This document shows positions 3,338 to 30,833 of a stretch of 30,833 nucleotides of DNA, piece by piece. Both the position numbers and the translations under genes were made by a program. The DNA comes from Lophium mytilinum (taxonomy: Eukaryota), in the NCBI GenBank assembly GCA_010093605.1, contig MU004201.1:310001-340833 (forward strand), read 5' to 3'. Within the stretch, counting starts at the first letter, position 1, and every line of letters begins with the position of its first letter. The notes beneath the pieces were generated by a model. It worked only from the letters and a program-made list of their open reading frames with translations, did no database searches and was not told the origin of the DNA.

Positions 3338-3492
3338 TTATTATCTCTTCTTCTTGCAAAGTCTACTCTAGGCAGCATAACGGCTACGGCCTTATCTTTA
3401 AAATATAATTAAGGTTATCCTCTCCTACTCTCTCTCCCCCCTTAGTAGACGTAATTCTTACTCCTATAACTATCCCGCCCTCTACTACTATA
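3338..3492 (+). repeat. 5' LTR of B, missing its first ~90 bp
   Basis: Aligns to 15715-15872 (ttatctcttcttctt...tatcccgccctctactac); terminal CCACA is RIP-mutated to CTATA. Confidence 0.92.
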
Positions 3493-3496
3493 TAAA

Positions 3497-3514
3497 TGGC
3501 GACCAGCACAGGAC
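3497..3514 (+). promoter_or_regulatory. Primer-binding site of B (tRNA-Ser-like)
   Basis: TGGCGACCAGCACAGGAC(T) lies 4 nt after the LTR. Its reverse complement AGT-CCTGT-GCTGGTC-G-CCA reads as T-stem, 7-nt acceptor strand, G discriminator and CCA, resembling tRNA-Ser 3' ends (...GTCGCCA). Confidence 0.7.
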
Positions 3515-3796
3515 TTTAACAGTAATAGCCTCGTCCTTAGAAAAAGCAACTAGCTAAGTTTCTTATCTCCTTCTAAGTCTATAATAGAGACGTCTATCTA
3601 TCTTTCCTAGTATTAGTTGTAAAGCAGTCTACGAATTAGCGGCAGTAGTGGCCTATTATTAGTTTAGCATTACTAGTCAGCCCGCAGCCTCTGCAGCCTG
3701 TTATTAGTCTTTCTAGTTTATATTAGCTATTATATTCTACATTAGCCGCCCCATACAGTTACAGCCTTACTATCTAGAATTAGTCCTGCCGTTTAG

Positions 3797-3899
3797 CTAT
3801 AGTCTTTCCATTCTACTACAGTCTTTCCATTCTACTACAGTCTTTCTATTCTACTACAGTCTTTCTATTCTACTACAGTCTTTCCATTCTACTACAGTC
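3797..3899 (+). repeat. 19-bp tandem repeat (CTACAGTCTTTCCATTCTA x ~5.4) in the 5' UTR of B
   Basis: Units start at 3797, 3816, 3835, 3854, 3873 and 3892 (partial); they differ only by C>T. Confidence 0.95.
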
Positions 3900-4485
3900 C
3901 TGCTATTTAGCCGCGGCCTCCCTGTTTGCATAGCGGCCTATAGCTGTGTTATCTTCGGGGCATCTAGGGGACCCTAAGAATTGCCAAGAAGGTTATTTAC
4001 TTTTAAGGCTGCCCGCAGGCCTGTGCTTTCCTTAGTATTGGAACTATTAGCCGCACTCAGCAAAGCGGCTAAAGCGGCCGAAGCTAGGATACCGCTATTA
4101 GGCCCAGAATCAGCACCGGCCATTATACAGAGACCTCCTGGCCAGTAGGATGGCTGCCCGGCAGCTAAGAGGCGACTATTACGGGCATCAGGCCCACCAT
4201 CGGATGCAGTACCGATGGCCTTAGGAACGCCGGAGTCGACAGAGCGAGCGCCTATAGGGGGTGCGACTCGTAAGAACGGCCACGCGGAGGCCCCGGCTAA
4301 GGGAAGAAACGAAGTGGCGGTTACCACGGGCGCAGGCAGATGATATATTTAAGGAAGCGTTCCCTTAGGTCGGAAAGAAGACTTAGCAGCTCCTATCAGC
4401 CGTCTACTTGTTATCATTCCTGACTACTTCTATTATTATCTCAGCCATCCGCGGATTCCTGGTCGCCCTCGCACCTATCGATAGA

Positions 4486-7272
4486 ATGGCGGACTTTACT
4501 ACCTTTCCGCACCTAGCGGCAGTAGACGGAGACAGCATTTTAACCTCTCGCCCGCTAGGTGAACACCATGAGGACCTTGCTCCTAAAGGGCAGGCCCGCG
4601 CGGAGCCTACTTAAGAATAGAGCACTAATCCTCCTCTATCTAACGCGATCATGAACCCGGCGTCCGAATCTTGTTTCTAGGGGCTAGGTATACCTTAGGC
4701 CACAGGTGCGCCCATGCCAACGGTACACCCGCAGGAAATCCGCATCATCCATCCGCTGCCTGGGCTTAGATCTCTAGAGTCCCCTCAGTTCACGGGCGTT
4801 AATGTTACTTAGTTCCTCCGTGACTTTAAAGACATGTGCTCTCGCTATTACGTTACAAGCGGTGATAATAAGATTAAGAAGATACTGGAATACTATAGCG
4901 AGCACATCAGGGAATGGCTTTAGACGACCCCGGAAATCACTTTGCCCTTCGCTGGTTGGACGGGCGTTGTACGCATGATAAAGAAGGAATTCCGTTTATA
5001 GAATAGCCACGCCAGGGTCGCTAAACTAGAGTTCCTGGAGGAATATGTGAAGGTGGCAAAGGCAAAACACGAGTCTGGGGAGATGTTTGATATTAAGCAG
5101 TACTGCCGCGAGTTCACTACCATCTCTTAGTACGCTGTTACTGCCGGAAACCTAATAGACTATAAGCGCGGATATAAGTTTATTATGGGGCTCCTAAAGA
5201 AGTATCGCATGAAGGCCATAAGCAGGGCAAACGCTCTTGCTAATGACAGGACGACCTTCCACTTTAAGAAGCTGCGCCGTGCGGTCCTGGAAAGCTATCA
5301 CGCTCTTCGGGGCGCTAAGCAGGTGGGAGAAACGGATACGGACAGCGTCGCCCTGTTAGTGTCAGCATTTCAAGGAGAGCAGCTACCTGCCACCTTGGCA
5401 TCACCAGCATCCGGCCAAGCGTCCTACGGAGGTGGCTATCATGCGCAGGAACCAGCAGCGGCAGCATCTACGGCGCCCATTGCGGTGCCAACCATCCGTT
5501 AACCAGCTCTATTAACGGATACGAACATAGATATGATCACGGAACAGCTTCGAGGGCTAAAGCTCAACGCGGTAGAACTTACTAATTACATTTCCAAGTA
5601 CCCGATGATTGATTAGGCCTTCCGGAACCCCACTAATCTGCTCCGTGCCGGAAACGCTGCTGCCGTTTAAGTCGTTCCAGCAGCACGCGCTATGCCAGCT
5701 CGGGAATCTACTGCACCGCTAACGCGTCCTCCTTAGCAGTACGGTAGCTATAGCGGAGGTGCCGCCGCACAGAGACCTGGAGTAATGGAATGCTTCGGAT
5801 ACGGAGAAGTAGGCTACGTCTGGGGACGCTGTCCGCAGATTGAGCGCCTTGTGGAATTCAACCTGGTGCACTTGGATGGCTATCGCCTAGTTCCTGGAAG
5901 GAAGGGCCATCCTGTTAGCGACTTTGAATGAATGCTGGAACGTAATCGCGTATAATATGTTAAGGACATGATTATTAGGAACCGTGGCGATCTAGAAAAG
6001 CCAGCACCTTCCTCTACCGCTGCTCCTACAGCCACGGGAGGCCAGGTCACCGCAGTTAGTGTAGGCTTCCAAGAGGCCTACGCGGAGGATGGAGAGGAAG
6101 AAGAATTAGGCCAGAACTGGGAAGATGAATTTGGCGTGCAGGACCTTTTAGTTGACTACAGCGTCAGCGCAGTAGCCAACAACACTAGAGGAAAGGCCCC
6201 CGTGCGTGCTCCTGTGCAGGGAGGGTCGAGAGTATAGAAACTAACAAACGGTCCGCAAAAGGCGACTGTAAGGACCTCTAGGCCTGGAGATTACGCGATG
6301 CTAGGACGGGCCCTTAAGGAACAGGACGGTGAACGTTCTCAAATAATGGACTACAAGGCTGGGCCCCAACAGGGTGATGGAGGTTAGCCCCGTCCGCCGC
6401 GAGTGAAGCCCGTACGAATAATGGACCTTCTAAGGCAGAAGGCCGCCCTAATGACGGGAATCGTGGAGAACATGATAACGGCCACGGTGGAGATGTTAAT
6501 TGCCGATATGCTCGTGCATATGCCTAATGCTGCAAAGCTATTCTTTAAGCCGCTAAGCCCTAATCTGGCGGAACCTATACAATAAGAACAGCAACAAATG
6601 ATCTAGCAGCAGCTATCGCAGCCACGATTTGGGCCCGGAATACGTACTATTGGCGAAGTGGCATCTATTAATGCTCGATACTTCCCCGCCGCGGATATAG
6701 CTGGAATGAATGCCAGCGAGATACTGTGTATAGAAACAGATGCAGGCTTTACTAGGTATTGTAGGCCGTGCCCGCAAGCATAAATTACTATCGGAAAGGG
6801 ACGGTTAAGCGCGTTAGTTGATTCTGGAGCAGAAATGAACATCATTTAGGAAAATGGGGCCCGAAGAATAGGCCTACCGATTGACAGTCTTCCAGGGGAA
6901 ATGGCTAGAGGAGTGATGACGGCCGCAAACGGTACGACTACCGGCTTCTCTGGCGTCATACGCCGTGCCGACGTTAGTATTAGTGGCGTCACTACTCCAA
7001 CTAACTTTGTAGTGGTTTAAGATATAAACTACGACGTAATTCTCGGCGAGCCGTGGTTATGTTAGGTTAGCCTGGAAACGAAACGAACGCCAGCAGGAGG
7101 AGTGACCTGCCTTATTACTGCCCCGAACGGGTCAATCCGCACGAGCTTCACGGCCATTTATAAAGAAGTAGGCTTCCTCCGTCCCGATGAATCTATGGAG
7201 GTGGGGGGGACGCGATTTAAGAGTATAGGCGCCAGCATTATTAGTGCGGGAAACGCCATGCCGGGGCAATAA
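4486..7272 (+). pseudogene. gag: gag-protease ORF of B (single frame, RIP stops)
   Basis: ORF fragments at 4408, 5185, 5968 and 6403 share one frame. Motifs: PQFTGVNVT*FLRDF capsid-like; zinc knuckle C-F-G-(C>Y)-G-E-V-G-(H>Y)-V-W-G-R-C at 5791-5832; aspartic protease ALVDSGAEMNI at 6811-6843; DVILGEPWL at ~7033. The start codon is uncertain (4486 or 4651). Confidence 0.88.
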
Positions 7273-7298
7273 CCAGTGTTGCTTCGGTAAGTGCTAGT
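7248..7298 (+). promoter_or_regulatory. Programmed -1 ribosomal frameshift signal (slippery heptamer plus stem-loop/pseudoknot)
   Basis: G_GGA_AAC at 7248-7254 is in phase with the gag frame. A 13-bp stem forms between 7259-7271 and 7277-7289 (with G-U pairs), loop ACCAG. The gag frame stops at 7270-7272 and pol is in the -1 frame. Confidence 0.8.
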
Positions 7299-10200
7299 AT
7301 TCCGGTATTAGATCTCCCACCGTCCGGGGAGAACCCTATGGAGGCCAGGCACAGCACGGCGGACGTCTTCGGGTGGAGGAAGTTACCGTTGGAAGCTCGA
7401 CAGCGAGATGTGGAGAGCGCAAGAAAGAAGACGGATGCTACGCACGTGTTTGTGGCACGAGCAAATGGCTTATGCTATTAATTAATAAGGGAAACAGACC
7501 TCTTTAGAATGCAGATAGAGATGCGGCAGCAGGACGTTAGACGCCAACAGCTTAACGGTACTGCTAAATATCGACAACGCAGCGCTAACGTTGCTACGCT
7601 GTACAAACGAAAAGCGGACAAGGTGCGGCCAGTTGATTCCTCGGAACAGGATTGCGTGGGTTTAGGGGGAATTAGGGAATGGAAGGAGAGGGCCAAGCAG
7701 CGCCAACAGTTGTTGCTTAATGAATAGCAGGCCGCGGGCCATAACCTACCCACCGGGCGTTTCGACGATGTGCTGGAGGCACGCTATGCGCCGTTTCCCT
7801 GTGGAACTCGGCTAACGGACGAACGCATGAAGAAGCTTCTAGTTGGAACCCACTTGAAGTCTCAGGAACTTAAGCTGCTAAAGGAAATGCTGCACCGATA
7901 AGAGGGGGCCCTATTGTTCGATTTCACAGAGATGGGGCGTGTTCATCCTAACGTCGCGCCGCCACAAAAGATCAGGACTGTCCCTCACAATGCCTGGCAG
8001 GCAAAGCCCTTTCCCGTTCCAAGGAAGCTCCAAGAGACCGTGACGGAAATGGTGAGGGAGAGGCTCGAGAAGGGAACCCTAGAACCGTGTTAAAGCCCGT
8101 GTAGGAACCCATGGTTCCTTATAAAAAAGAAGGATAGGAAGTATCGCCTTATTAACGCGGCAATGAAGATTAATGCTGTTACTATTCGGGACGCCAACTT
8201 ACCGCCAACTGCGGATAAGTACTCTGAGGAGTTTGCATGCTGCAAGGTCCTCTCGCTTATTAATTTCTTCTCCAGCTACGATTAGATACCCCTAGACCCG
8301 GAGAGCCGTAATCTTACTGCATTTATAACGAGCCTAGGCCTAATGCGTTAGACGACACTACCGCAGGGAGGAACGAACTCAGTCGCGCAGTTCGTGCGCA
8401 TCATCCTTGAGATTCTTAGCGATCACGTTCCTACAATTGCGCTACCCTTCCTGGACGACATAGGCGTAAAGGGGCCCAAAACGACTTACGGGAACGAAGA
8501 ATTAATGCCGGGCATCCGGCGCTACGTGATGGAGCACATTCAGAACCTGGACGCCGTCCTGGCTGATCTCGAACGGGCCGGATGCACTATCAGCGGTGCC
8601 AAATCCTTCTTCTGCGTGGAGGAGGTCGTAATCGTCGGGTATAAGTGCAATGGGACGGGAAGGCATCCGAATAACGATAAGGTTGAAAAGATCGTTAATT
8701 GGAAGCCGTGCAATTTAGTGACAGCAGTGCGGGCCTTTCTAGGTATTTGCACGTACTTTCGCATATAGATTAAAGGATACGTAAGCGTTGCTAAGCCCCT
8801 CTTTCGGCTGACTAAAGTAACCGTGAGATTCGTATGGGGACCTAAGCAGGCTAGGGCGATGGAGTCGTTGAAAAGGATGCTAACTTCCGCGCCTGCGCTG
8901 GTTAGCCTTGACTTCAGTGACGGGGCAGGAGAAATCATACTCGCCGTAGATGCTAGCACCGGCGGATAGGGGTGCTGTTTAATGCAGCTTGACGCTGAAG
9001 GACGGCAGCACCCTGTGCGATACAAAAGTGGCATCTAGTTATCGGCGGAACGGAAGTATAATGCTGGGAAACTTAAATGCAGAGCACTACTACTATTACT
9101 AAAGAAGCTTCGCCGATACCTCTACGGGGCAACATTTACGGTGGAAACGGATGCAAAAACGCTAGTGGCTCAACTTAACAGGGCTGCGACGGATCTTCCC
9201 GGCTCTTTGATAACACGGTGGCTGGCCTAGATACAGCTATGGGACTTCTAGGTTCGTCACGTACCTGGGAAAAGAAACGGCGCTGCAGACAGGCTCTCTT
9301 AACGTCCTCCGGATAATGATAAGGTCCTGGAGGAACTATATGAGGACATTGATGCATTCATTAATAGTAAGATTGGAGCCGTAAGATTCGACATCTCCCC
9401 GGCGGCAGCGGGGCATGCAGAGGATGCCACAGAGGAGGTGTATAATGCGCAGCTGGCAGAGGGGTATTTAGAGGAATCGGAGCGTATCGCCGCCTGGCTA
9501 ACAATAATGCAACGCCCCGCAGGCATGGATCGAAAGGAATATCGCTCGTTTAAGAAGAACGCCTGCCGATTCGTTGTTCGAGAGCGCTACCTCTTCCGCC
9601 GTCAATCTAAAAACGTGCCTATTCAACGGGTTATTGATGACCCGGAGCTGCGCAAGGAGACCATTAGAAATCTCCATAACGATGGGGCTTATCGCGGGCG
9701 AGAAGGGACGTACCAGCGAATAGCTTACAGATACTGGTGGCTAAACCTCTAGCAGGAAGTCTGCACCTTCGTTACTAGCTGCAAGGAGTGCTAAAGTCGA
9801 GCATTAAACCGTACGCAAGAGGCCTTGCATCCTACTTGGGAGAGTGTGCTGTGGGAACGGGTATTAATTGACATCGTTAAGCTGCCAACCTGCAGAGGTT
9901 TCCAATTTATCATCGTCGCCCGAGAATACGTCTCTGGTTGGGTAGAGGCTCGTGCTCTGCGGAAGGCCGACTTAAAATCTGTTGCAAAATTCCTATACGA
10001 GGACGTTATCACGCGCTACGGTCTAATGGGGAGGCTAAACGTTAATGGTGGAGGAGAAAATATGGGGGAAGTGCTCTAGATGCTCGCACTCTATAGCGTT
10101 AAACGCGTCCAGGCCTCGGCGTATTACCCAGAGGCTTAGAGCCTCATTAAGCGCGGCCATCGCCCTATCCTAGACGCCCTGGTAAAGATGGGAGGAGACT

Positions 10201-11102
10201 AACCACAGAATCTCTTCGCCGTACTATGGGCAGACAGAACGACTATGCGCATTAGCACGGGCATAACTCCAGCCAGAATGCTCTTTGGGCAAGAGTATAT
10301 CCTTCTAATCGACCTCGCCATCCCAACCTGGCAGGCACTCCCGTGGAATACCGTGCGCACTACTGCGGATCTCCTTGAGCTGCGCGCTCGCCAATTGCAA
10401 CGTCGCAAGGAGGACGTTAAGGAGGCTGTGGCTCGGACTATACGCCACCGTCTGAATAACAAGGAGGAATTTAACGGCCGGAAGCATATACGGGAGGCCG
10501 GGTACGCAGCTGGCGATATAGTACTTCTCTGGGACAGCGTGCGAGAGAAGGATATAAGTAGAGCTAGGAAGCTAAGCCCCCGATGGCTAGGCCCTTTCCG
10601 CGTTTGAGATGGGACCGCCATGGGATCCTACCAGCTCGAGGAGCTTGATGGCATAAAGTTCCGCGGCAGAACGCCTAGCAGTTGCCTGAAGTTGTTTATC
10701 TAGAGGGACCCTAATAGCGTGGCGGCTAAAGACCGCCTAGAGAGAATAGGGACAGCTCCGGAGGACGACGCCCCGAACGAGGCGTGGTGGGAACCTATTA
10801 ATCCCGCGTATAACGAGCGGCCGCCCGCTCTTAATAGTACTTCTGTTCCTAAAGCAATTACAGATGAGCCTGACTTTAAACAAGAGCTGCCTCCGCGCCT
10901 GCAGCATGAAGTCCGCATTACGATCCCGCAGGCGTTTAACCGGGATAAATACCAGGCCTTTAATGATAACGGGGCGCCCGTGCTGCCTGCGCCCATAGCC
11001 CCTTAGCCTAGTGTTTGTATTGTTCCCCTAGTAAACTTTAATCCCGACGAGTATACGCGCTTTAAGGAGGAGGACCTTATTAATTTTTCCAATTTAGATT
11101 GA
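7254..11102 (+). pseudogene. pol: pol (RT-RNase H-integrase) of B, RIP-inactivated, no chromodomain
   Basis: Fragments at 7509, 8394, 9438, 9825, 10245 and 10719 are all in one frame. RT: NPWFLIKKKD, LPQGGTNSVAQF, FLDD at 8448-8459. RNase H: ILAVDAS at ~8937. Integrase: H..(H)..CKEC, LIDIV, N(D)GGGEN, GLI(E)RGH, and GPY/F motif KLSPRWLGPFRV. Probable true stop TGA at 11100-11102. Confidence 0.95.
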
Positions 11103-11150
11103 TTCCTGCGCGCGTGCAACTTGCTACCTAGGTATTTAATTCGGGGGCGT

Positions 11151-11182
11151 TCGATTATGGGACAATCTCGTAGGTGGGGAGG
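11151..11182 (+). promoter_or_regulatory. Internal copy of the hairpin plus polypurine-tract motif, just after pol
   Basis: tcgattatgggacaatctcgTAGGTGGGGAGG compared with the terminal tcgtcatgggacgactccTAGGTGGGGAGG (15595-15623). Confidence 0.75.
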
Positions 11183-12063
11183 AGGACCTGAGCCGTGCCT
11201 GCTCATCGTTAGCAAGTTGCAAAAACCTGGGTTTGACCTCACGCCCTCACCCTATTACGACTTCACGACGTTTTCCTTAGTTTCCGTTTCCTGAGGTAAT
11301 GCGCGGGCAAGGTAGAAGTGATGGTATTGTGCGGATTGGCGCCAGAAGAGACTGCTAATAAGGCGGTGAGCGACCTGGCTAATCAAGAGTTTTCGTGTCG
11401 GATTCTGCCGTAACATGAAAACTTGTAATTGGCTGGATTAGACATTACGTTTACTGCCTAGTCCGGATAGCAGTATATTCCGTCCCGCTAACCGCATATC
11501 TATTACTACTATCACTACTATTACCGCCCACCTCTCCTTTCTACCTATAACCTCTTCCTCTTTCTATTTAAGCCTTTTAAGTTCTATATAGCCTTAACCA
11601 CCAGCAAGAATAAGTCCTGCTGCACGCCAGAAGCTGCCTGCGCAGCCTAAGAGTGCCTACTCTTAATAACGCTATCCACGGTTGTTGCAGACTACCCAAT
11701 CTTGCTTACAGACTACTTATTCCTGTATGCAGCCTTACCATGCTCCTCTAGTCTTCGTAAGAACAACTGCACGAGCAACCTTACTATCTACAGTCCTTCT
11801 ATTTCACCTTCAGTCCTACCACCCTACTTCAGCCTTTCTTCCTTAAGCTAAGGACGGAGCGCACGCCGCTCACCGCCTCTCTGCCAAAGAGACACCGCCA
11901 GTATCGTGCCTCCCCTCTTAAGAACCTCACCTTCTTCTGCTTTCCTCCTTAGCTCCTGTCAGTTAATTATTAGCTGCCGTCCTCCTCTAGCGCTTTAAGC
12001 CTTCTCCATTCTGTCCGCCCTCCAGCACCATCTGCCAGATCCATCGCCAACGAGCCGCCCGCA

Positions 12064-15051
12064 ATGGCGTCTTCTTCTTCCAGCCTGGTTCCGGTCGCCA
12101 CAGGCAGTGCCTTTTGGTTTAATTACCAGGGCAAGATGACAACCGTTAATGATGCGCTCGCAGCCATTGCGGAATTTACCCTGAAAATGAGAATGCAATT
12201 ATATTACTACTTTGTGGAATGCGTCACCGACGTCCAGGAGCACATTAACACGGCTGCTCAATCTATTCTTGACGTAGCAACGCGAGACGTCCAAGCACGC
12301 GCGCTCCTTACTCCTGCGCAGTTCAAAGAGGCATTCCGCCCGCTCACTGAGGTTGCCCAGATGACTTGAGATAGCCGCACCCGCGCAGTCGCTGCTAGGG
12401 CCAAGGTTCAAGAGGTCTTTGGCGACCTAGTTAAGGAGAAAATTAGGGTCCTCCGCCAGATCAACACTACGCACGGAGCACCTATCGTCAATAGGTACCT
12501 GCGGACCTATCCTAGGGACTTTAAGCGGGTAAATAGTGCGCTGCTTACCCGCCTTACCACCCAAGCCTCTGCTAGGAAGACCCCCCACCTTATAGCTGTT
12601 GACTTCATCACAGCATTAACGCCGATATATCAACCTTAATACTTCTCGAACGAGGTTATTCTTTCCCTTGGCCTCGGGCGCCATCCGCTGGGCTTCTTAC
12701 TTCCCCTTAGCGATCTACCACCGGTAATAGATCGCTTTACCACGGTTCCGCCCGATGCATTGTCCTTAATCAAGCTCCCTTATCGAAGCGCGCCGCCCTC
12801 TCGCCTAGAAACCCCCGTCAAGGCCCCTCCTTAAGACGTTGAGATGGCCTCCCCTATGTCGTCCGCGCTGTCCTCCCCTAGGGATGTCGGAACCCCTTAA
12901 TTATTTGGTTACCCGTCGCCGCACCCAAAGCCCCAAGACACGCTTCCAGCCCCCCGAACGACTCGTACCTTCCTGGCTGCCGTGGACTACAGTGAGCTGG
13001 ACCTAGAAGAAGACGAGGCCCTGCTGGAGGACCAGGTTGAGTCCCTGGTCGCCCTAAACTCAGCACCCTCCCGATGCACCTGCGATTCCTCCGTGCAGCC
13101 TGCTCTTAAAATAAAGCTGCAGTCTAAGACAAGAATAACTGATTTCGAGCGCATGCGAACACTGACCAGCTGGTTCAAGAATACTGGCCCCAACCCATCT
13201 CGCTGCTTCGTCTGCTATCACCATACGCGCGCGATGGCAGCCCACCTAGGCCTTAAGAGCGGCCACGGGACCTACATTTAGCTGATTTCGAGGCTCCGCT
13301 ATATCTATAACCATCGCGAAACCTTTAGTTCCTTAAAGGTAGCTAATAACACATTTAGTTGGTTCCGCAAGGAGGCTCGTCCACCCGTCCTATTTGATGA
13401 GCTTAGACCCTACCGTTTTAATCACAACACTGCAGCTACTTGTGGATCCAACTTCAAGGTCCCTGTCCTTTAACTCTAGCAGCGGATTCTCGGCTCTAAG
13501 GTCCTATTAGATGCCTGGCATAGGGATGGCACTATTGTTCTCCCAGACGCTTTTAGATAGTGGCGATCCAGCGGTCTCCTAGCCATCTTCCACGAGGAAA
13601 TGGAGATGTATTTGTGGCACCAGCGAGTAATTAGCGGCCGCCCGAACTATGGTTGGCTGCGCTCTATGGTGCACGGACTTAGTTAGCAGGTTATAAGGAT
13701 AGATTCTTAGTACTACCGGCAATATATTGCCCTTCGCCCGGACCATTAATGGTGCCTAGTCTCCTTTCCGTACTATGCTAAGTTTGCTGTTCCCGGCGAT
13801 TATACGGCATTCCAGCACATTAATCTAAATATTAAGGAGTTAGTGCTATACGACCGCGGAATTAACGCCCTTCAAGGCAGTATTTCCCTGGATGATGAGC
13901 GAAATGATGACTGCACTTAGCTGGTTTTCGGCATGCACAGGAACATTTAGAACTAGTACCAGCGCATGGTGAGCGAGAATTGCCCCCTCGCAGATGGCAA
14001 GGTTTAAAGCATCAACAGCGAGATGTGGAATGCGGAAGACATTACGCTCTATGGCGACTTCTAACCCCAGCCCGTGAATAACTGTGGAGTTTGTATCTCT
14101 ATGCCTTATCTGCCCTATGGCGCGCTTAGCCCTTGCAAATAAGTCCGCCGCACCCTCCTCCCCTGGTTTGTAGGCATTTAGAAGGATTACGTCTATCTAG
14201 AGATTACGGAAGGCACTACGTGGCCGGAAGTATCCCAGGCGGCGCGCGACCTGATAATGACGAAGAAGACACTCTCTGGGCATGCCTTTATATACGGCAC
14301 CGCACCCTATTAATTCCCTGCAGCCGTGGAGCTTAATCCCCCTCGCGCCATCTATGCTGCACTCCTTGGGCTGCGGAAGTGGGATTTGCCCGCTATTCTT
14401 GCCGAACGAGACTTCCTTCTTACGGCGCCTTAGGCAGAGGTTGACAAGTGGATGCACTAGTACCGGAAGGACATCACTAGGGAGGTAGAGAAGGCCTGGC
14501 CCCTTATCTAAGCGGCTGAGCGCAAGGTTTTCGGCGACAAATTATACTTCAAGTACATGGACGAGAACAGCCACAAGCCGCGCGATTACTAGTATCCTGA
14601 CAATCCTTAATATAGGCCTTTCCCGCCCGCTACTAGCAAGGACATGAACGCAGAGAACGCAGCCTTAATGCCCTATACTAGCACCCCCGATGACTAAGCC
14701 GCTGCCGCAGCTGCGGGTCTTTAACCTATTGCTGCACCTGCTGGGCTCTATTCCCGATCTTCCTCCTCCGCATTATCGTCCTTAGCTGCCTCAGGACGTC
14801 CCCGCACTTTCTTTTCTGCTAGCCGTGGAGGAGGAGACAAGCTGTTGAAACAGGTGCACCAGAGATCGCTGTCTGGCAGTGGTGGAGACTCCTTTCTTAG
14901 TCTTAACTCAGCCTTACAGCAGTCGGCCTTATCTTTAAAGGGAAAGGGTAAGGAGCGCGCCTCCCGGAAGGGCTCGCCCATAATATCACGGCGGAGCTCT
15001 CGCTCTCATAGAGATTCTCCTCTGCCTCCCCCACCTTAGCCGGAATCTTAA
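12064..15051 (+). pseudogene. Extra ORF3 of B (~995 codons): Cys/His module plus PhyH-like 2OG-Fe(II) dioxygenase domain, RIP-inactivated
   Basis: ATG in good context (gcaATGG). Fragments at 12064, 12982 and 14845 share a frame, which reads through with about 25 RIP-type stops and no frameshift. Motifs: WHRDGTIVLPDAF (13516), H-I-(D>N) (13816-13824), LQGSISLDD (13870), VFGMH (13924-13938), LP(H>Y)GA (14110-14124), RR (14146-14151). The end is 15039 or 15051. Confidence 0.8.
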
Positions 15052-15192
15052 TGGGACTAGGAAACTCATCTATTTTCCTTCCGTTGCTGCCTTTGTCTCC
15101 AACGGAACCTCTACTACCTGCGCGGCTTCCTGTCGCCACTGCAGTCTATCCGCTGCCTATGCGAGTTTACATTTCAAATAACTTGCGCCCAC

Positions 15193-15280
15193 TGCGGAAC
15201 GAGCGACTCGTTGCGAAACGAGCTTGCGCTGCGGAACGAGCTCGCGCTGCGGAACGAGCTCGCGCTGCAGAACGAGCGCG
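15193..15280 (+). repeat. 18-bp tandem repeat (TGCGGAACGAGCTCGCGC x ~5) in the 3' UTR of B
   Basis: Units at 15193, 15212, 15230, 15248 and 15266. Confidence 0.92.
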
Positions 15281-15403
15281 GCATTCCCCTTTCCTTCTAT
15301 AAACTGCTAAGTTTATTTCTACAGCCTACCCGTTCTATAGCTAGGCTGTATTAGTCTTCCCATTTCTCTGGCTAACCTTATTAAGCCATCGCTGCACCAG
15401 CTT

Positions 15404-15417
15404 CTAGGTGGGGAGGC
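15404..15417 (+). promoter_or_regulatory. Second PPT copy (CTAGGTGGGGAGGC)
   Basis: 14/14 identical to 15611-15624. Confidence 0.7.
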
Positions 15418-15610
15418 CGCCACTAACTAACACTCTCTGTTTTCCTGCCCACCCCTAACTATCACCACGGCTAAACTTTCTATGCTTCTTTCCTTAGTTC
15501 TCTACAATCTCTATTCCCTTAGCTACCTAGTCTTCTGTTTGTAGCAGTCCTTAGCGATTCTTAGTGTCTATCTACCTTACACGGTCTACTGTATCGTCAT
15601 GGGACGACTC

Positions 15611-15625
15611 CTAGGTGGGGAGGCA
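15611..15625 (+). promoter_or_regulatory. Polypurine tract of B
   Basis: CTAGGTGGGGAGGCA abuts the TG start of the 3' LTR. Confidence 0.88.
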
Positions 15626-15872
15626 TGTGGTAAGGTAGATCGGTGCAGGTATGCGAGCGGCACGTAATAAGCGTCTAGGCCCCTTCTTAATTGTGGAGGG
15701 CGGAGCTTCATCATCTATTATCTCTTCTTCTTACGAAGTCTGCCCTAGGCAGCACGACGGCTACGGCCTTATCTTTAATATAATACAATTGAGGTTATCC
15801 TCTCCTACTCTCTCTCCCCCCTTAGTGAACGTGATCCTTACTCCCTTAACTATCCCGCCCTCTACTACCACA
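15626..15872 (+). repeat. 3' LTR of B (247 bp)
   Basis: TGTGGTA...TACCACA inverted termini; matches 3338-3492 and 30540-30784. Confidence 0.95.
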
Positions 15873-17137
15873 CTACTAGTATATATAGTAAAGGAAATTA
15901 ACTAGTTCTATAATAACTATACTATCTACTACTATTCTAAGTACTCCTAAGATAAGAAATATAGTTTCTTAAGGCCCCTACCTATTCTAAATAAGCGCTA
16001 GCAGTATCTTAGCATTAACTATATTGCTGCCCTACCTAAATGCATCTATAGAGGTATTATATATAAGTATATTATAGTAGTCTATAATAGACTAACTAAA
16101 CACTGCTACTTTATTTCTATAGATAGCCTTAGCTCTAAGGCTCTTATATAAGCCTTCCTTTCTATCTTTACACTTTACGGAGTCTTAGTCTATCCTCTCT
16201 AATAGAGGAAGTAACTTTATCTCTAAGTTCTAGAGACGGCTCTGCTAACGCCTAGATATCTCTCTTAAGATGTCTACCGCCTTCCACCTAGAAATAAATG
16301 GTTAAACTAAATATTCTAACTAAGAACTTAAAGAATATATTTAGAAATATATTAATTATGCATAAGATAACTAGGTAGACTAGCTATCTATTGCGGAATT
16401 CTAAGTAAATAATACTATTTATACCTCTACTAGTATAACGCTCTTTTTTATAGATACCGGCTACTACCCTAGCACCGGCCTTAAACTAGCTATCGCTGTT
16501 ATCTAGATCTAACTAGTAGAGGTAAGAAAGAAATATACATTGCTAATAATATTACTATATCTATAGAGAACCTTACTTAAGTTCTTTAAGAGAATCTAGC
16601 TTAGGCTTAGGAATAATAAGCTAAGTACGCTAATGCACACTAAGTAGACGCTCCGCTATTTAAGATAGGAGACCTAGTCTATATTAACACTAGGAACTAG
16701 AAAACAGAATAACTAGCTAAGAAACTTAATAATAAGTACGCCGGCCCTTACCCTATTATCTATATTATACTAGAAAGTAAAGCTATATAAGTATAGCTTT
16801 CTAAATACCTTAAAGTAGAAGGGATATTTAATATCTTCTACTTTAACCTTCTACACTTATATAAGCCCGACTCTATTCTATTATAGGCTTAACCTAAACT
16901 ATAACCTATCTATATAGTTTAGAATAAAAAAATAAAGACGCAAAAAGAAGAGTACCTTATAGATAAGATTATAGATAGCCGCTATATTAGATAAGGAGTT
17001 TAATATAAGATTAAGTAGGTAGATAACTCTAAGTACTACTAGGAGCCTTTTAAGACGTGGATTAACTATTATAACGCTTAGTTATTCTACTAGAAGTACC
17101 CGTGTAAGCTACGCCCGCCTACCTAAGTTCTACTACC
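15873..17137 (+). pseudogene. pol: Integrase plus chromodomain of element A (resumes after B)
   Basis: Y*Y..VKEIN..(C)..(C) zinc region, LRPLPI, RLTK, SNRGSNFISKF* (~16198), STAFHLEING*T, GPYPI (~16743), chromodomain EEYLIDKIIDSR...YKIK* (~16947-17050). Linkage to 1-3337 is inferred from domain order. Confidence 0.85.
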
Positions 17138-17357
17138 TATTATGGCCGTAACGCGACCCTTATCGCGATACGTTTCTATTATAGGCAACGGCGTCACGTA
17201 GCTTCTATCACGTGCCACCGTGACCTAACCTCGCTTAGCGCCAGCCTCGCCTACCTCTTAGCCGATGCTCCGCGCCCTACTCTCTCTCCTTGTAGCTACT
17301 TTATTATATACTTAATATAATTAGTTTTCTATTACAATTCTATATTGCACTATAATA
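17138..17357 (+). repeat. 5' LTR of C
   Basis: Colinear with 24856-25075; termini are RIP-derived from TGTCACGG...CCGTGACA. Confidence 0.94.
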
Positions 17358-18199
17358 TAAAGTAGCTACCCTTCTAGCTTCTAGAAGATATTAGAAGTAC
17401 TCTTTTTACCTATCTAACTATATATATATATATATACACCGGCGCCATTTACTATCTATAAGCTACTAAAATTTAATTCCTATAACCTTTATTAATAAGG
17501 AACTAGAATAGAAGGAGGCTCTATAACCTTATATTAAGGATACTACAACCCGTTGCCTATATAGACTAACGCGCAGGCCCTATAAACCTACTTGCTATTG
17601 CGCCTCTACCCGCGCACGCGTAAACTAACTAAACCCAGCGCAGTTATTAGATATTATTTACTAATTAGCTTAGCCGCTAAGAACGGCCGCTAAGGAGCGC
17701 ACTAGCTATATCTACTTACTAGCTTTTATAAAGGCCCTATAACCTTCCTTTCTATACTAATCTTTTTCTTTATCTACCTACCTGGACTATTATCTACCTA
17801 CTAGAACACCCTCTACTATTACCTAACTAGTAATAGTTAACTAGCGCAACCCCCTAACACTAGTTCCTCCTTATTTAAGACCCCACAAGCAGAATTAACC
17901 GCCTGCGACATCGAGTCGCGGTAAACACGCTGCAGCGCATTTAGAAGCTTCCTCTGGCGGTGTATACGCTAATAAGAGTAGCAACACTAACCTATACCCT
18001 ACTCTTAATAGCTAAGCTACCTAGTTAATACTAGCTTCTAACTCTTAGTAAGTATAATAAGAGACCTAATACACTAAAGCCTTACTTAAAAAGGCAGGTA
18101 AATTATCTTAATATAGTGTTAGTTCTACTCTAGAGTAGCTAGCCGCTCGCAGTAAACTCTACCTGCCCTAAAAGCTAGTACTATTAGACTAGGCGCAGC

Positions 18200-20460
18200 C
18201 GCTGCCTATAGTCGCCTGTAATAACTAACTATAATCCTCTAGCGCAGCAGTCGCTCCCTTAACCCGGAAGATAAGGAATTCTGTATTACTTCTAATAAGA
18301 AAGATAGCGCGCAGCTTAACTAGGAGCTTGACGAGCTTAATAAAGAGGATGAGGATAATTAATTCTAATCCGCTATAGACCTCCGGAAAGTAGTCTACTT
18401 TAATTAAGGCGACCTCCTCGGCGTATAATAGAATAAGACCGTTCTAGCTAGTCTAGTTCTGCCATTTACTCCTTAAGAAGCTTAGCGCAGCAATAATCTA
18501 CCTTTCTTAGCATAGAGCCCCTCTAGGCTAACTATAGCTATGCTATTACAACCTAACCCGGAGTTACCTACACTAGGCGCATTAGGGCGCCGCAACTCTA
18601 ACTATCGTAAGTTGTACTTTGCTATAATAGCTAAAGGTATTACATTCTATATTAACCGCGATAGAGTTGCCAATACTATTAATATTAACCTTAACTCTGC
18701 TAAAGCCTTCCGGGATGCAGTTTCTGAGCATTATAAGGATATATATTATAAAGTTACTATATTCTAATAAAACCTAGAAGCGCTTTAAGAAGACATGCAG
18801 GCTAAGAACGCGGAATTAAATACTCTCTGCAGCTAAGCTGAAGCTTATAACCTAGAGGAGATCTTATGCTTTTAACGCAAAGTTACTTAACTAAATAAGG
18901 ACATTGCGCGTTTTTAATTAGAAAATAAGAAAGCGTACACTAAGTATAACTAATAGTTTACAACTAAACATAAAGCTTATAAAGATAAAACTCTCCTGCT
19001 TAGTAAAGCACGCCTAGAGATTAAAGCTCTCTGTTAGGACGTCTCCACAGCATAATAGGATTCAGATTAATTGTGAACCTAGTAAGATTACTTTAAGGAG
19101 CTTAGTCTTACCTATAAGCGGCAGTACACTAATTTAAAAGCAAACTAGAAGATAATATTAGCGCCTGCATAATTACGACGCGCTGCCGCTGTTGCCGCAG
19201 GCGACCTTAACTATAACTTAGCGGAAGACAATAATAATAAAGTTAATTGGGACGACTTCGCTATTATAGATAATAACACCATAACTTAGCTTACGTGCCT
19301 GCAGCTCCACGGAGACTATAAGCCTAAATTCCGTAATCTTTAGAAATTTACTAGTAAGAGCGATAAACACTAATACCTATCTTAGAAGAGCTACGCCTAC
19401 GCTATCTTCTAATATAAGGGCCTGGCCTACCTAGATAAGTAGAGCAAGATAGAATATATTAAGTTATACTGCGTTAATTACGCAGAAGCTACTATCTGCA
19501 GCTACATCTAGTTTAAGAAGCCCTTGCTAAATAAGAACTTTAAAACTCTAGACTAGATATTTAAATATATAGACCCGTACTTTACTATTTTTAATAAGCC
19601 CGCGCATATAGATAATATCCTCTATAGCAATAAGGTAAAAATAAAAGGCTGTAAATTTTAGGACATGTACATGCTACGTTTTAAAGAGATAACTAATATT
19701 AATAATAAGAACTAGATGCTCTTCGCTTTTAAGAAAGGATGGCTTAAGCGACTCCTACGTCTAGATCTTAGTAGCTAAGTGTTTAGCAGCGCTAACAGCT
19801 ATTAAGACTGGCCCACGCTTATCGCCGCGGTATTCCGCGCTAAAGCCTTCCTTTAGAATAACGCTTAGCGAGATGCAACTGCCTAGCCCTCTTAATTATC
19901 CGGCTTCTATAATAGTTACCGCAACAACTATTTAAGTAATTACCGACTAAACCGACCGAATAACTACTAAGATTGTCGCCCTAACTAGAACTACAGATAA
20001 AAGTTATCTACTCCTTGCAACGATAAGAGCGATTAAGGCAATCGCTCTATTTACCTTCCCCTATTAGTTATATTAGTCCTGCGCACTAAAGGATACTGCT
20101 TCTACTATATTAAGAAAGGTTACTAAGCTAATAACCCTAAGCGCCCTTGCGCTAATAACCCCCCTCTATCCAAGCGTAAGCTAACTAAGTACCTGTCTAA
20201 AGCCGAGAGTGGACTTAAGCTTAAGCTCTCCGCGATTTATTACGCGGACGAAGATATTAACAACTTAATTTCTATTAATAGTAATAGAGAGAATCTTACT
20301 ATTATTACCTACTCTAATAAAGTATTATCCTCTAGTGTACTTAGTAATATAGATAGTAGCAGCAACTAGGAGGATTTTATATAGGCTCTAACTATAGTTA
20401 TAGATAAAGCTATATAGAATTCTTTCTAAGTACTATTACGGCCCGTATCTAGGAACTAGA
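18200..20460 (+). pseudogene. gag: gag of C (RIP-degraded; boundaries approximate)
   Basis: Lies between the 5' LTR and the protease; coiled-coil-like stretch at ~18770-19150; degenerate zinc knuckle GYCFY(C)..KG(H)...PC at 20091-20150. Confidence 0.65.
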
Positions 20461-20469
20461 ACGGCCACC

Positions 20470-23400
20470 CCTGGAACTAGATAAGATCTAGCTATCCGCA
20501 TGCTCTACTGACTTAACCTAAGACATTACTTACGGCAAGTAGTTAAATTTCAAGTGTAGAATTTATATACCTATTAGCACAACTAATAGCTACTATCTTA
20601 TAAGATACAGGCTGCTCCTGCTTCGCCTTCGTCTTACAATCCTACGCTAAAGCCAACAAGCTAATAACGTTGCCCCTAGCTACTTCTATCCTACTGCGCC
20701 TAGCTAATAGTATATCTATAAAGCTTATTACTTATAAAGCCTAGCTTATGCTATTCTTAGGTGCCTATACTAAGAATATATAGTGTTATATTACTAATCT
20801 TAAGGGCTATAATATTATCTTAGGCACCCCTTAGTTTAAGAAACACAAACTAAATATTATATAGAGTAAACACGCGCTTAACTTTAATAAGGACTTCTGC
20901 TATAATTACTGCCTCTATACCGACAGATGAAGGCGCGTATAGAGCGACGGAAAGAATAGAGATATTACCCGCGTAGGTAAGCGCTTATATAATACCGCAC
21001 TTTAAGAAGTCTTTAGCAAGTATTGGAAACTTAGCCTAGAACTAGATAAGGTAAAGGACATAATAGCAGCCTGCTAAAAGCTCCAGCGCGAAGGCAAAGA
21101 GGACTATATTGTTTAACTCTAGGATAATAACTAGGTAAAACTATAAATAGAGGATTACGAACGCTATTAGCCTTAGCCTATAACTTATCCTCTATAAACA
21201 TCCACCCCGGAAAAGAATCCAGCCCTGTGCGGCCTCGCTAAACTTAATAATATCCTTAATAACGCATAGATAGCCGCTTTTACCGCTAATATATTCGCTA
21301 TTAACCCTTCTAATTACTAGAAGTTCTTTAAGAAAATAAATCGGCCTCTAATTACTAATAAAGAAATTAAGGAGTTACTTCCTAATTAGGTGCACTATAT
21401 AGTAGATGCATAGGATCACCGTAGAGCTAATAAGCTTCCACCTTATTAACTAATAGACTACGCAATTAACGTCCTCCCTAATTCTAAGCCACCTGCCCGG
21501 AAAGTCTACGGCCTTTTAAGAGATTAAGCCGCCATTATTAAAGCTTTCGTTAATAAAATGCGCGCTAAAGGTTTTATTCGCCCGAGCTCCTCCTTATACG
21601 CTGCACCAACCCTAGTTATTAAGAAACTAGGTGGAGGACTCTATGTTTGCATTAATTACTATAGCCTTAATAAGATTAGCATTAAAAGCCGTAATATACT
21701 ACTACTTGTAAAAGACACTCTTATACTGCTGGCTAAAGCTAAGTATTATACAAAACTTAACGTAATTAGCGCGTTTAACGCCCTCTATATTAAAGAAGGC
21801 GACGAATATAAAACAGCCTTTCTAACACGCTAGGGGCTATTTAAATTTATAGTACTCCCGTTTAGTCTATATAATGCACCTAGTTCCTTCTAAGCCTATA
21901 TTAATAACACCCTATAAGAATATCTTAATAATTTCTATACTATATATATAGATAACGTCTTAATATATAGCAATACGCTAGAAGAATATAAGGTACACGT
22001 CCTTACGGTTGTTACTAAGCTCCGCGATGCTGGCCTATTCCTTGACATTTATAAATGCGAGTTCGCCGTCGACAAAGTTAAATATCTTGGGGTGCTTGTC
22101 GGCGTTAACGGCGTTTAGATAGACCTAGCTAAAGTATAAACCGTACTCGACTAGCTAACGCTATAAAACCTTAAGAACGTCTAAGCCTTCCTTAGATTCT
22201 GCAATTTCTATTATTATTTTATTGCTAACTACTCCGCGTTTATAGCTCTACTAATAATACTAATATCTACTATATAAAAAGGCTTTAAGTTTCTATAGCT
22301 AGATAATAGTAACGAAGCAAAGGCTTTTTAAAATGTAAAAGAATATTTCCGCGTAGCCGCCTAGCTTGCATTATAGAACCCTAACTACGATACCTGGGTT
22401 AAATGCGACTCGTCTAATTATACTATAGCAGCCGTGCTATCTTAGGTCTAGCCTAACCGGACGCTCCGCCTAGTTGCCTTTATATTACGATGTATAATAC
22501 TATAATAGATTAATTACGCCATCTATAATAAAGAACTCCTAGCTAAAGTCCTCGCCTTTAAAGAATAGAGACTAGAACTTGCCGGATAGGGATAGGAATG
22601 TAACAGCCTAGTTAATATTATCTTAGATTACAAGAACCTATAAATGTTTATAACTTCTAAAGGCCTTAATTATCGATAAGCTCGCTAGGCCAAGTTTCTT
22701 GCGGAGTTTAACTTTAAAATTACCTATAAACCAGGCAAGTAGAATAAAAAACCTAACCTGCTAACTTAATAACTAGGTAATAAACTAGCCCTAGGCGATA
22801 ATTGGTACAAATGCTAAGAATAAGTTATGCTAAAGCTAGCTAACTATAAAGCAGGAATGCACTACGCCGTAAAGCTTGCGTATATTCTAACTAACACGCT
22901 TAAATGCACTCCTGTTAAACTGGCATAGATAATATACAACTTTAGTAAATTTAATTACCTAGACGATAAAGGCGTTTAGTTAGCAGTTACGCGCATGCGC
23001 TCTCCGCCTACTGTTTTAGATAAGCTAAATAATTCTAGACTACGCGTGCGCATAAGAGGCCGCCCTAAGAAGACGATTACGCCTATAGTTTCTTAACCGA
23101 CAGCCAAGCTAGATAAGATAAAGGACTCTAGCCTAGCTCGCCTACAAGGACGCCCTAAGAAGAATAAGACACCCCTAGTAGATGAGCTATATAATTCTAC
23201 TACCGAGAAACTACCTATAGATAATAAGCTAAATAATTCATCTAAGAAAATAGTTCTTACGGGTAACTAGATCCTTTAAAGGGTCTAAAAGCACTCTAAA
23301 GGCGACCCCGTTATACAAGCTATTAAATACGCTAAACGCCGCAATTAATAACGGCTTTCTACCTAATTCTGCCGAGATTACTACCTATAAATAGAACTAG

Positions 23401-24568
23401 GTAACTATAAAGTTATTAATAACCTCCTCTACGTCTATAAGCGGCTCTATGTTCTAGATATTAAATAACTGCGCACTTATATTATCTAATCTATGCAAGA
23501 ACCTAAGCCCGCTAGACACGCTAGGATAATATTAATCTACGCACGACTCTGTAAACACTATTACTAGCCTTAAATAACGTCCTCCATAGACTAGTATATC
23601 GGCGCCTTCCTAGCTTATAAAAGATCTAAACACTCTTAAGAAGGTAAATAAGGACTACTCCGTCCTCTGCCTATTCTAGATTAATATTAGTATTACATTT
23701 CTATTAACTTTATTACCCCCTTGCCAATCTATAAATAATAGGGGCGCAAGCTTAAATATATTATAGTTGTTGTTAATTAATTCTTAAAGAAGAGGAAGTT
23801 TATCCTTTCATTGCAATAAAAGGATATAATCCGCGCTCCGGTCTTAAACTAGTAGATAACTCTATAGCTAAAGGACTATAGAAGCCCCTTAGAGAGAAGG
23901 CTAATGCGCTCGCTAAGCGACTAAATAACCTCCGCCTGTTCCTCTATAATAAATTAATTTGGGTACAAGCTAGATAGATAGAGTTTGCTAACCGCAAGCG
24001 GAAACTAGCTACAGAGTTTAAAGTTGGTAACTAAGTTATATTGGACGCGCGCAATATTAAGACTTACCGCCTAAATAAATTACTAGACCATAAATAGCTT
24101 AGTCCCTTTAAAGTTACTAAGGTTATTAATAACGCCGCTTACTAATTAGATCTCCCACGCACTATAAAGGGAGTGTTTAATATCTTCCACCTATAGCTAC
24201 TCTACCGCATTACGCATAAGCTATTAAAAGGATAAATCCAGGAGGAACCTAGACCCGTTAAGATTAATAAAGAAGGCTACGAGCAATAGAATATTAATAA
24301 GACTATTAACTTACGTATTAATAAAGCTATGCTTAACCTAGCCACTAAATAAAAAGGCCTACTTTAGTATAAGATTCTCTATACTAGTTACCCTAAATGG
24401 AACGCTAATTCTTAATAGAAGTTCTATACTAGTGTTACTAACTACTATAATATTATTATAGACTATTACTACATCTACCTAAATATAAAAGGACCTTATA
24501 AGTCCTTCTAGAAACCTAAATATTAGGAGCCGCTACTCGCCCTAATTATGACAACGCTCTACAGATAA
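20470..24568 (+). pseudogene. pol: pol of C (PR-RT-RH-IN-chromodomain), RIP-inactivated, integrase core deleted
   Basis: DTGCS at 20604; RT ORF fragment 21558-21833 and YIDN (=Y.DD) at 21945-21956; RNase H TWVKCDSS at ~22392; GLLRPLPI at ~23652; chromodomain at ~24280-24500. Confidence 0.92.
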
Positions 24569-24843: not shown

Positions 24844-24855
24844 AGAGGGGGGGAG
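24844..24855 (+). promoter_or_regulatory. Polypurine tract of C
   Basis: AGAGGGGGGGAG immediately before the 3' LTR. Confidence 0.88.
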
Positions 24856-30784: not shown

Positions 30785-30833
30785 CTAACTAAGGTTATTA
30801 TAGGAATGAAGAAGTTTAAGTAATAGTAAGAGG

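Follow-up and report, generated by a model that had tools for sequence, protein, structure and literature searches.

The 30,833-nt stretch of Lophium mytilinum DNA analyzed here (contig MU004201.1, positions 310,001–340,833; hereafter the window) contains a Ty3/gypsy retrotransposon, element B, at about positions 3338–15872. This segment very probably represents a copy, damaged by repeat-induced point mutation (RIP), of a lineage in which a third open reading frame (ORF3) is a regular, inherited gene for a PhyH-like Fe(II)/2-oxoglutarate (2OG) oxygenase, an enzyme that would be active and useful to the element. ORF3 is located between pol and the 3' long terminal repeat (LTR). Sequence comparisons indicate that the protein family is real, large and catalytically conserved, and that the gene transposes with the element.

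The ORF3 frame in the window

The window copy of ORF3 (positions 12064–15051, + strand) was identified by frame scan and homology and is predicted to be an inactivated copy of a gene for a PhyH-like Fe(II)/2OG oxygenase of ~950 aa. The frame runs from position 12064 for 995 codons and ends with a TAA at 15049–15051. It has 27 internal stops, 26 of which are TAA or TAG (13 TAA, 13 TAG and 1 TGA). The stop counts of the five remaining frames over these positions are 32–74. By itself the stop count is weak evidence for the ORF3 frame because frame 0 of the minus strand has only 32, and it is homology that decides. The intact homologue P0002 gives a single high-scoring segment pair with the window by tblastn, with residues 11–853 aligned to positions 12124–14568 in one frame (E 1e-155). 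Frameshifts and introns are thus absent across 12124–14568, and the sense frame of ~995 codons lacking both, which the original prediction had proposed, is borne out over these residues.

The positions of the stops are informative. Twenty-four stops could be placed in an alignment with five homologues. Eight of them are at columns holding Q or W, vs 14% of the other columns, and four stops (aa 499, 541, 631 and 706) fall on invariant W or Q columns. This is the outcome that would be expected of CAA/CAG to TAA/TAG and TGG to TAG changes.

The residues of the putative active site show the same type of damage. The codon of H585 is an intact CAC (13816–13818). Residue 587 (13822–13824) is Asn, with an AAT codon following ATT, where the family has Asp, i.e., a change of the TpG to TpA type. 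Two positions that are His in the family are occupied by Tyr (Y682 and Y685, CAT to TAT), and the distal His site is Tyr685 at 14116–14118. R695 and R696 are intact (14146–14151). The substitutions of Asp by Asn587 and of the distal His by Tyr685 are consistent with RIP-type transitions. The motif had been reconstructed from the damaged sequence beforehand, and correctly: H585 and the Arg are intact, and Asn587 and Tyr685 stand at the family Asp and His. With Asn for Asp, Tyr for the distal His and 27 stops, the window copy is dead.

RIP is mild in ORF3. The TpA/ApT ratio is 1.08–1.25 vs 0.53–0.58 in intact relatives, and the ratio (CpA+TpG)/(ApC+GpT) is 1.10–1.23 and not lowered; the flanks show classic RIP (0.31–0.59). 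The GC content of the ORF3 region is 0.50–0.55, compared with 0.30–0.40 in the heavily RIPed flanks.

ORF3 in a related family of elements

Relatives were found in metagenome contigs by a scan with a 12-sequence alignment. Of 311 loci, the 80 best were retained, and all 80 belong to the P0002 family. A scan of viral contigs gave 90 pattern matches with no relative among them. Two of the best 80 loci, L001 and L002, have a stop-free ORF3 of normal composition. The other 78 have 21–56 in-frame stops in ORF3, nearly all TAA or TAG, a GC content of 0.35–0.42 and essentially no indels, and are read as RIPed copies. Locus L002 has three open ORFs, encoding gag-protease (gag-PR, 1014 aa), pol (1202 aa) and ORF3 (950 aa), and its LTRs are 99.6% identical.

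A pol gene upstream of ORF3 could be looked for in loci with at least 3.5 kb of sequence upstream of ORF3 (69 of the 80). The end of a homologous pol is present within 2 kb upstream and on the same strand in 62 of these 69, with protease and gag ahead of it. Of the seven exceptions, one has an internal deletion, two have additional DNA separating pol from ORF3, and the other four, discussed below, are copies of a composite repeat. The order protease, reverse transcriptase (RT), RNase H and integrase, found in the window as well as in the intact L001 and L002, fits Ty3/gypsy (Metaviridae).

A strict filter retained 46 loci with LTR pairs of 260–280 bp and TGTGG...CCCACA ends that enclose gag through ORF3. 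The polypurine tract (PPT) of this family is directly 5' of the 3' LTR, ~50–60 nt past the ORF3 stop. Exact 4-bp target duplications flank 26 of the 41 pairs that could be tested, vs none of 41 in a control shifted by 10 nt, and a one-base adjustment of the 3' boundary makes a further nine pairs exact. The ~10.6-kb unit including ORF3 transposes as one element, since the LTR pairs and target duplications enclose gag through ORF3.

In the LTR flanks of L002–L080, the target duplications of the related family are nearly all of the form N-T-A-N (CTAC, ATAG, GTAG, ATAT, CTAT and others). This form may reflect an integrase preference or landing in RIPed, TA-rich DNA. The 4 nt past the 3' LTR of element B are CTAC.

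The four pol-less loci have ORF3 and a 3' LTR, are RIPed and are without gag (L017:5119–8755, L033:9539–13182, L037:6700–10343 and L039:5928–9502). Homology to the element begins in all four at one base, the start of an internal PPT block (L002 position 7131). The DNA that they share ahead of this junction consists of a PPT-like piece and ~100 bp similar to the start of an LTR. Further upstream in L033, on the opposite strand, there is a relic with a Pfam match to Transposase_21 (tnp2, E 4e-7). These loci may represent a composite repeat, formed when the ORF3 module was carried into a different mobile setting. An origin as cDNA of a spliced ORF3 mRNA was rejected, as there is no full 5' LTR or primer binding site (PBS) ahead of the junction.

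Selection and shared ancestry

A comparison of L001 and L002 over the whole of ORF3 gives a ratio of nonsynonymous to synonymous substitution (dN/dS) of 0.071 at a dS of 0.33, with 50 nonsynonymous and 181 synonymous differences. The ratio is 0.069 for the N-terminal 380 residues, 0.049 for the core and 0.225 for the tail; for the same two loci it is 0.091 in pol and 0.198 in gag-PR. The dS across the compared regions is 0.33–0.58. As determined from this one pair, purifying selection in the L001/L002 lineage thus acts on ORF3 as strongly as it does on pol.

The window element has 59% identity to the related family in pol, 23–33% in gag and 37–45% in ORF3. By these values it is assigned to a different lineage, one with the same layout of gag-PR, pol and ORF3. 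The suggestion that ORF3 is stable cargo and not a one-off has held up: there is a second, diverged lineage, the layout recurs in 62 of 69 loci, LTR pairs and target duplications enclose the gene, and it is under purifying selection.

The PPT of ordinary Ty3/gypsy elements is found directly past pol. A PPT block, GGGAC...AGG(T/C)GGGGAGG, is present twice per element in the window, L002 and L001, once past pol and once ahead of the 3' LTR. The two blocks are at positions 11157–11186 and 15599–15623 in the window and at 7131–7166 and 10440–10469 in L002. The duplicated block has the look of a scar that both lineages inherited from a single old acquisition of ORF3, and this is the simplest reading of the alignments: ORF3 would have been inserted once downstream of the original PPT, with duplication of the block, before both lineages split. 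The internal copy may be a central PPT or the scar of the ORF3 insertion.

Three pairs of an ORF3 homologue and a pol relative (P0159/P0311, P0163/P0221 and P0198/P0300) come from the same source and from equally sized source sequences (11007, 10685 and 12508, respectively). P0311 also has a chromodomain match. These pairs faintly suggest further, more diverged elements with both genes.

The ORF3 protein family and its predicted fold

The window translation has no match to any Pfam family at E ≤ 1. A word-index search with this translation finds five proteins of 833–950 aa (E 1e-141 to 1e-78). An exhaustive phmmer search over all cluster representatives finds 901 at E ≤ 1e-3, 522 at E ≤ 1e-10 and 196 at E ≤ 1e-30. 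Those members that are named are annotated as 'hypothetical' or 'uncharacterized' and come from Pezizomycotina (Rhinocladiella, Coccidioides, Onygenales, Penicillium and metagenome-assembled genomes of lichen fungi), and one JGI record among the named homologues carries the label PhyH. The conserved core of the family corresponds to window residues ~380–835.

The original prediction was based on an H-x-D...H motif plus a downstream Arg, and in other copies and homologues the four residues prove to be near-invariant. H192, D194, H295 and R305 (P0029 numbering) are at least 90% conserved among 149 sequences, and H602, D604, H703 and R713 (P0002 numbering) are conserved likewise among 84 full-length sequences. 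By position, H-x-D...H represents a putative 2-His-1-carboxylate metal triad. The near-invariant Arg ~10 residues past the distal His (R305/R713; R695/R696 in the window) is at the site expected to bind the C5 carboxylate of 2OG. Ahead of the catalytic domain there is a CxC...CxxH motif, at aa 338–387 in the window (13075–13224, + strand), defined by family conservation and the window codons. In the 84 full-length homologues C361, C363 and C407 are invariant and H410 is nearly so (P0002 numbering). This motif is a putative zinc site.

An AlphaFold model of the core (P0029, 473 aa), made with the 149-sequence alignment, has a mean predicted local distance difference test (pLDDT) score of 93.6 and a predicted template modelling (pTM) score of 0.90. 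The model was compared with 48,161 PDB representatives by VIA-align. The top match is YbiU (4rgk; Z 20.0, 280 residues aligned, root-mean-square deviation 3.1), followed by Candida albicans Gig2/DUF1479 (6akz; Z 18.7). Over the two matches 280–282 residues are aligned, at a sequence identity of 12%. PhyH-type enzymes come next at Z 13–15: EvdO1, a proline hydroxylase, SnoK, KanJ, EctD and human PHYH (2a1x, 14.0). There are 51 representatives at Z ≥ 8, and the top rows are all 2OG oxygenases. ALKBH3 (Z 8.4), NgTET1 (Z 8.2) and JMJD3 (Z 8.2) are at a level that VIA-align itself rates as common, and the modeled similarity to AlkB, TET and JmjC enzymes appears to be that of the shared superfamily fold only. 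Foldseek gives 75 matches at E ≤ 1e-3, led by the same group at E 2.5e-6 and weaker, and a search of the Atlas finds PhyH clusters. A BFVD search finds PhyH-type proteins of giant viruses and phages only, none of them retroviral. The core, which corresponds to positions 13381–14568 of the window (+ strand) by the P0029 model, the fold matches and the conserved residues, is thus predicted to be a double-stranded beta-helix (cupin-like) of PhyH type.

Sequence profiles detect this relationship weakly. When 22 homologues were compared with Pfam PhyH (PF05721), eight had sub-threshold matches, 12 had none and two had unrelated weak matches; the weak PhyH matches cover the C-terminal half of the Pfam model. 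In the same 22 homologues there is no match at E ≤ 0.1 to Gig2-like/DUF1479 (PF07350), nor to AlkB, TET/JBP or JmjC. A PDB sequence search with a single protein gives a spurious match only, and a search with the 149-sequence profile finds only the oxygenase AviO1 (4xaa) at a weak E of 0.47, with the HG...RRT stretch aligned. Because PhyH-type fold matches lead while the Pfam PhyH scores stay below the cut-off, the family is best placed, on the strength of the model, as a remote and unnamed branch of PhyH-like 2OG oxygenases, outside Pfam PhyH by curated score. The PhyH-type fold proposed from motifs in the damaged frame is in agreement with these YbiU, Gig2 and human PHYH matches, with Foldseek and with the eight sub-threshold Pfam matches.

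A model of the full-length P0002 protein (pLDDT 79.4) shows four regions. These are a confident, mainly helical N-terminal domain of ~200 aa (residues ~4–209), a disordered linker (210–344), a segment with the Cys/His motif, the catalytic domain and C-terminal helices (345–863), and a disordered, basic, Ser-rich tail beyond residue 863. An Atlas search with the N-terminal domain (P0004 residues 1–215) gives no usable feature match, and its structural rows are all at a template modelling score below 0.4.

Organization of element B and neighboring repeats

The limits of the LTRs of element B were set in two ways, by comparison within the window and by homology to the related family. The location of ORF3 between pol and the 3' LTR is as originally predicted; the LTR limits differ from those predicted, and are 3338–3492 for a 5' remnant and 15626–15872 for the 3' LTR. 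The 5' remnant (+ strand) has lost its first ~88 bp and has 89% identity to 15716–15868. With purine/pyrimidine coding, which is insensitive to RIP, 3338–3493 equals 15715–15873 and 30642–30785. Where it breaks off, the remnant borders on the RNase H region of a different Gypsy element, which is heavily RIPed. Since the start of the 5' LTR is lost, a target-site duplication cannot be shown for element B. The 3' LTR (+ strand) is 247 bp, TGTGG...CCACA, and is homologous to the LTRs of the related family; its termini match the TGTGG...CCCACA ends found there. Element B has the terminal hallmarks of Ty3/gypsy: LTRs with TG...CA ends, a PBS-like sequence and a PPT.

The PBS-like sequence (3497–3514, + strand) was read from the sequence. 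It starts with TGG 4 nt past the end of the LTR, and the TGG PBS of the relatives is 7 nt past theirs. An aragorn search over the related loci, aimed at the PBS tRNA, returned no records. Short tandem repeats are present in the leader at 3781–3927. A gag-like, RIP-damaged region occupies frame 0 of the window at 4711–6600 (+ strand); it is supported by tblastn of P0007 against the gag position of related loci (23–33% identity) and by the trace of stop density. A retroviral-type aspartyl protease follows at 6784–7059 (+ strand; P0007 residues 1062–1153; Pfam gag-asp_proteas E 5.8e-8, with Asp_protease_2 and RVP_2). The pol frame (7203–11102, + strand) is -1 relative to gag-PR and ends with a TGA at 11100–11102; it was assigned by Pfam matches of P0008 and by its 59% identity to L001/L002 pol. 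P0008 matches RVT_1, RT_RNaseH, RT_RNaseH_2 and Integrase_H2C2, plus a weak match to SH3_Tf2-1. The corresponding domains on the + strand are RT at ~8121–8645, RNase H at ~8835–9236, the integrase zinc domain at ~9639–9800 and an SH3-like domain at ~10512–10640.

The internal copy of the PPT block (11157–11186, + strand) begins ~55 nt past the pol stop and can be aligned to the 3' PPT block of element B as well as to both blocks of L002 and L001. ORF3 starts ~960 nt past pol and ends 560 nt ahead of the PPT. The 3' untranslated stretch (15052–15612, + strand) has short tandem repeats at 15209–15277. The 3' PPT, AGGTGGGGAGG (15613–15623, + strand), is homologous to the PPT that is directly 5' of the 3' LTR in the related family.

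Several other repeats are located near element B. At 30512–30787 there is a third, RIP-degraded PPT and LTR copy of the element B type. Upstream of it neither ORF3 nor a B-type pol is recognizable by tblastn at E ≤ 1e-3, and the DNA ahead of it resembles pol of a different Gypsy family. Positions 17138–25076 represent a nested LTR retrotransposon of another Gypsy family, without a third ORF. Its 213-bp LTRs (17138–17350 and 24856–25068) are 88% identical, its PPT differs from that of element B, and its RT region resembles 2123–3340 and 25626–27279. The two sides of element B, 2123–3340 and 15855–16747, resemble consecutive parts of pol of the other Gypsy family at 25782–27004 and 27668–28559. 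Element B was probably inserted into such an element, and a later deletion would account for the loss of ~660 bp of target plus the first ~88 bp of the 5' LTR.

Alternative explanations

Several points weigh against ORF3 as a regular and useful gene of this lineage. The dN/dS values are based on a single intact pair. The 5' LTR of element B is truncated, and hence has no demonstrable target duplication. ORF3 is also present in other repeat contexts, i.e., the four pol-less loci near a DNA-transposon relic. The best Pfam PhyH score among the 22 homologues is 21.8 bits (E 2.6e-4), so that none of them reaches the curated cut-off of 22. Two lineages were seen directly, that of the window and that of P0002; many of the ~900 other representatives may be ordinary genes of the host. 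Transfer of the gene may have been from host to element or from element to host.

One alternative is a one-off capture or separate insertion, in which a host gene or another element came by chance to lie between pol and an unrelated LTR. The truncated 5' LTR without a demonstrable target duplication, the third PPT and LTR copy at 30512–30787 and the spacer between ORF3 and the PPT (560 nt vs ~50–60 nt in the related family) would all fit such an event. The same order and orientation are found, however, in 62 of 69 related loci, inside LTR pairs with target duplications; the PPT and LTR of element B are homologous to those of the related family; and the level of RIP is alike over gag, pol and ORF3 and sharply unlike that of the flanks (GC 0.50–0.55 vs 0.31–0.40). 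A one-off capture is already contradicted by these data and is extremely improbable. It is less far-fetched, although still quite improbable, that ORF3 is primarily a host gene of Pezizomycotina, taken up once by one Gypsy lineage and carried as a passenger without benefit. The named homologues, for which few member sequences are listed, are on megabase-scale chromosomes of annotated genomes, as this explanation would have it. Yet a neutral cargo of 2.9 kb should decay or vanish, and the dN/dS is 0.07 at a dS of 0.33, with the N-terminal part and the core alike. Moreover, ORF3 is full-length and has the same flanking PPT blocks in two lineages whose pol sequences are merely 59% identical. An accessory enzyme that serves the element is rated well above a neutral passenger.

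A different question is what such an enzyme would act on. The original prediction was that it oxidizes methylated bases, RNA or chromatin, and a demethylase or oxidase of nucleic acid or chromatin (5-methylcytosine, N6-methyladenine, N6-methyladenosine (m6A) or methyl-lysine) could strip silencing marks from the element. There is precedent for transposon-carried 2OG dioxygenases in the available text of two reports (PMC9289625, PMC12730594). The large non-catalytic N-terminal domain, the CxC...CxxH motif and the basic, Ser/Arg-rich tail would suit a macromolecular target, and the hosts carry out RIP and are therefore under strong genome-defence pressure. The structural neighbors argue otherwise: PhyH, YbiU and Gig2, with small-molecule and amino-acid hydroxylases, are at Z 13–20, and the AlkB, TET and JmjC enzymes are far below at 8.4, 8.2 and 8.2. 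The absence of AlkB, TET/JBP and JmjC Pfam matches at E ≤ 0.1 in the 22 homologues points in the same direction. The proposed activity on methylated bases, RNA or chromatin is thus unsupported, and a demethylase of this type is unlikely.

Possible function of ORF3

The preferred interpretation remains that of a regular oxygenase gene of the element. The ORF3 protein would be an active Fe(II)/2OG oxygenase that acts on a host or element molecule by hydroxylation or another oxidation. Such an oxidation would raise the replication or persistence of the element, perhaps by countering host silencing. The model suggests a small-molecule, amino-acid or protein side-chain substrate over a methylated base, because the fold neighbors are hydroxylases of small molecules, amino acids and protein side chains and not base demethylases. 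A macromolecular or nuclear target would be in keeping with the additional domains, Cys/His motif and basic tail of the protein. Candidate routes of expression are a spliced or subgenomic RNA, an internal promoter and reinitiation.

A broader interpretation is possible but more doubtful. An old and widespread Ty3/gypsy lineage of Pezizomycotina may keep an active PhyH-like oxygenase as a fourth module, together with gag, protease and pol, for counter-defence or replication, and much of the ~900-cluster family would then be transposon-borne. Possible targets would be a component of a host silencing or RIP pathway or a protein of the element itself.

Comparison with known systems

YbiU and Gig2 are the best structural matches of the ORF3 core and also lead in Foldseek. 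Both are putative PhyH-like dioxygenases encoded by cellular genes, stand-alone proteins of ~400–450 aa that have no counterpart of the N-terminal domain, CxC...CxxH motif or tail, and the likeness to Gig2/DUF1479 is structural only, with no Pfam match. A literature search on Gig2/DUF1479 yielded mostly the unrelated Gig2 gene of fish. Neither protein is known to have an established substrate. PHYH (PF05721) has the same fold class (Z 14.0) and the same order of H-x-D, distal His and Arg, but the ORF3 family is much longer, has extra domains and is below the curated cut-off. In env-bearing Ty3/gypsy elements (errantiviruses and plant elements with env-like ORFs), a third ORF is located between pol on one side and the PPT and 3' LTR on the other. 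The ORF3 product differs in that its predicted fold is that of a soluble enzyme and not of a membrane glycoprotein.

Other 2OG dioxygenases are encoded by mobile elements. As described in the available text of one report, Ty3/Gypsy elements of the orchid Phalaenopsis have an extra ORF for an AlkB-type 2OG-dependent dioxygenase, an m6A RNA demethylase with activity in vitro; the acquisition is described as recent and the elements are 25 kb (PMC9289625). The likeness is that of a Ty3/gypsy lineage with a fixed extra Fe(II)/2OG dioxygenase ORF proposed to serve the element against host surveillance. As far as that text goes, the differences are in the host (a plant vs Pezizomycotina), in the branch (AlkB vs PhyH/YbiU/Gig2-like), and in age and size (recent and 25 kb vs a gene common to lineages with pol 59% identical, in elements of ~10.6–12.5 kb). 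The orchid enzyme has activity in vitro, and the fungal ORF3 is known here from sequence and models. TET/JBP dioxygenases are encoded by fungal DNA transposons and are thought to benefit the transposon, according to the available text of a second report (PMC12730594). These too are fungal mobile elements with a 2OG dioxygenase and an HxD/E...H triad, but in that text the carriers are DNA transposons and Helitrons, and ORF3 is not TET/JBP-like (NgTET1 Z 8.2 vs YbiU 20.0).

No account of a PhyH-like ORF in fungal LTR retrotransposons was found in a literature search that had Repbase-type libraries and supplementary files outside its scope. The word 'dioxygenase' is absent from 'LTR Retrotransposons in Fungi' (PMC3248453), and a paper on Coccidioides transposable elements mentions only an unrelated dioxygenase (PMC5872316). 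Transposon-borne 2OG dioxygenases are already known (orchid AlkB, fungal TET/JBP), and the PhyH-like branch in fungal Gypsy elements is apparently undescribed.

It is rare for an accessory gene to become fixed in LTR retrotransposons, and every such gene points to a conflict between host and element. Here a different dioxygenase branch is an inherited and selected gene of fungal Gypsy elements, in hosts with RIP as their main defence. ORF3 offers a concrete protein for a role in counter-defence or replication, and the intact L001 and L002 copies imply that the enzyme can be made. Cargo of this type is a likely explanation for a large unannotated family of fungal 'hypothetical proteins', and genes annotated in this way in fungal genomes may belong to transposons.

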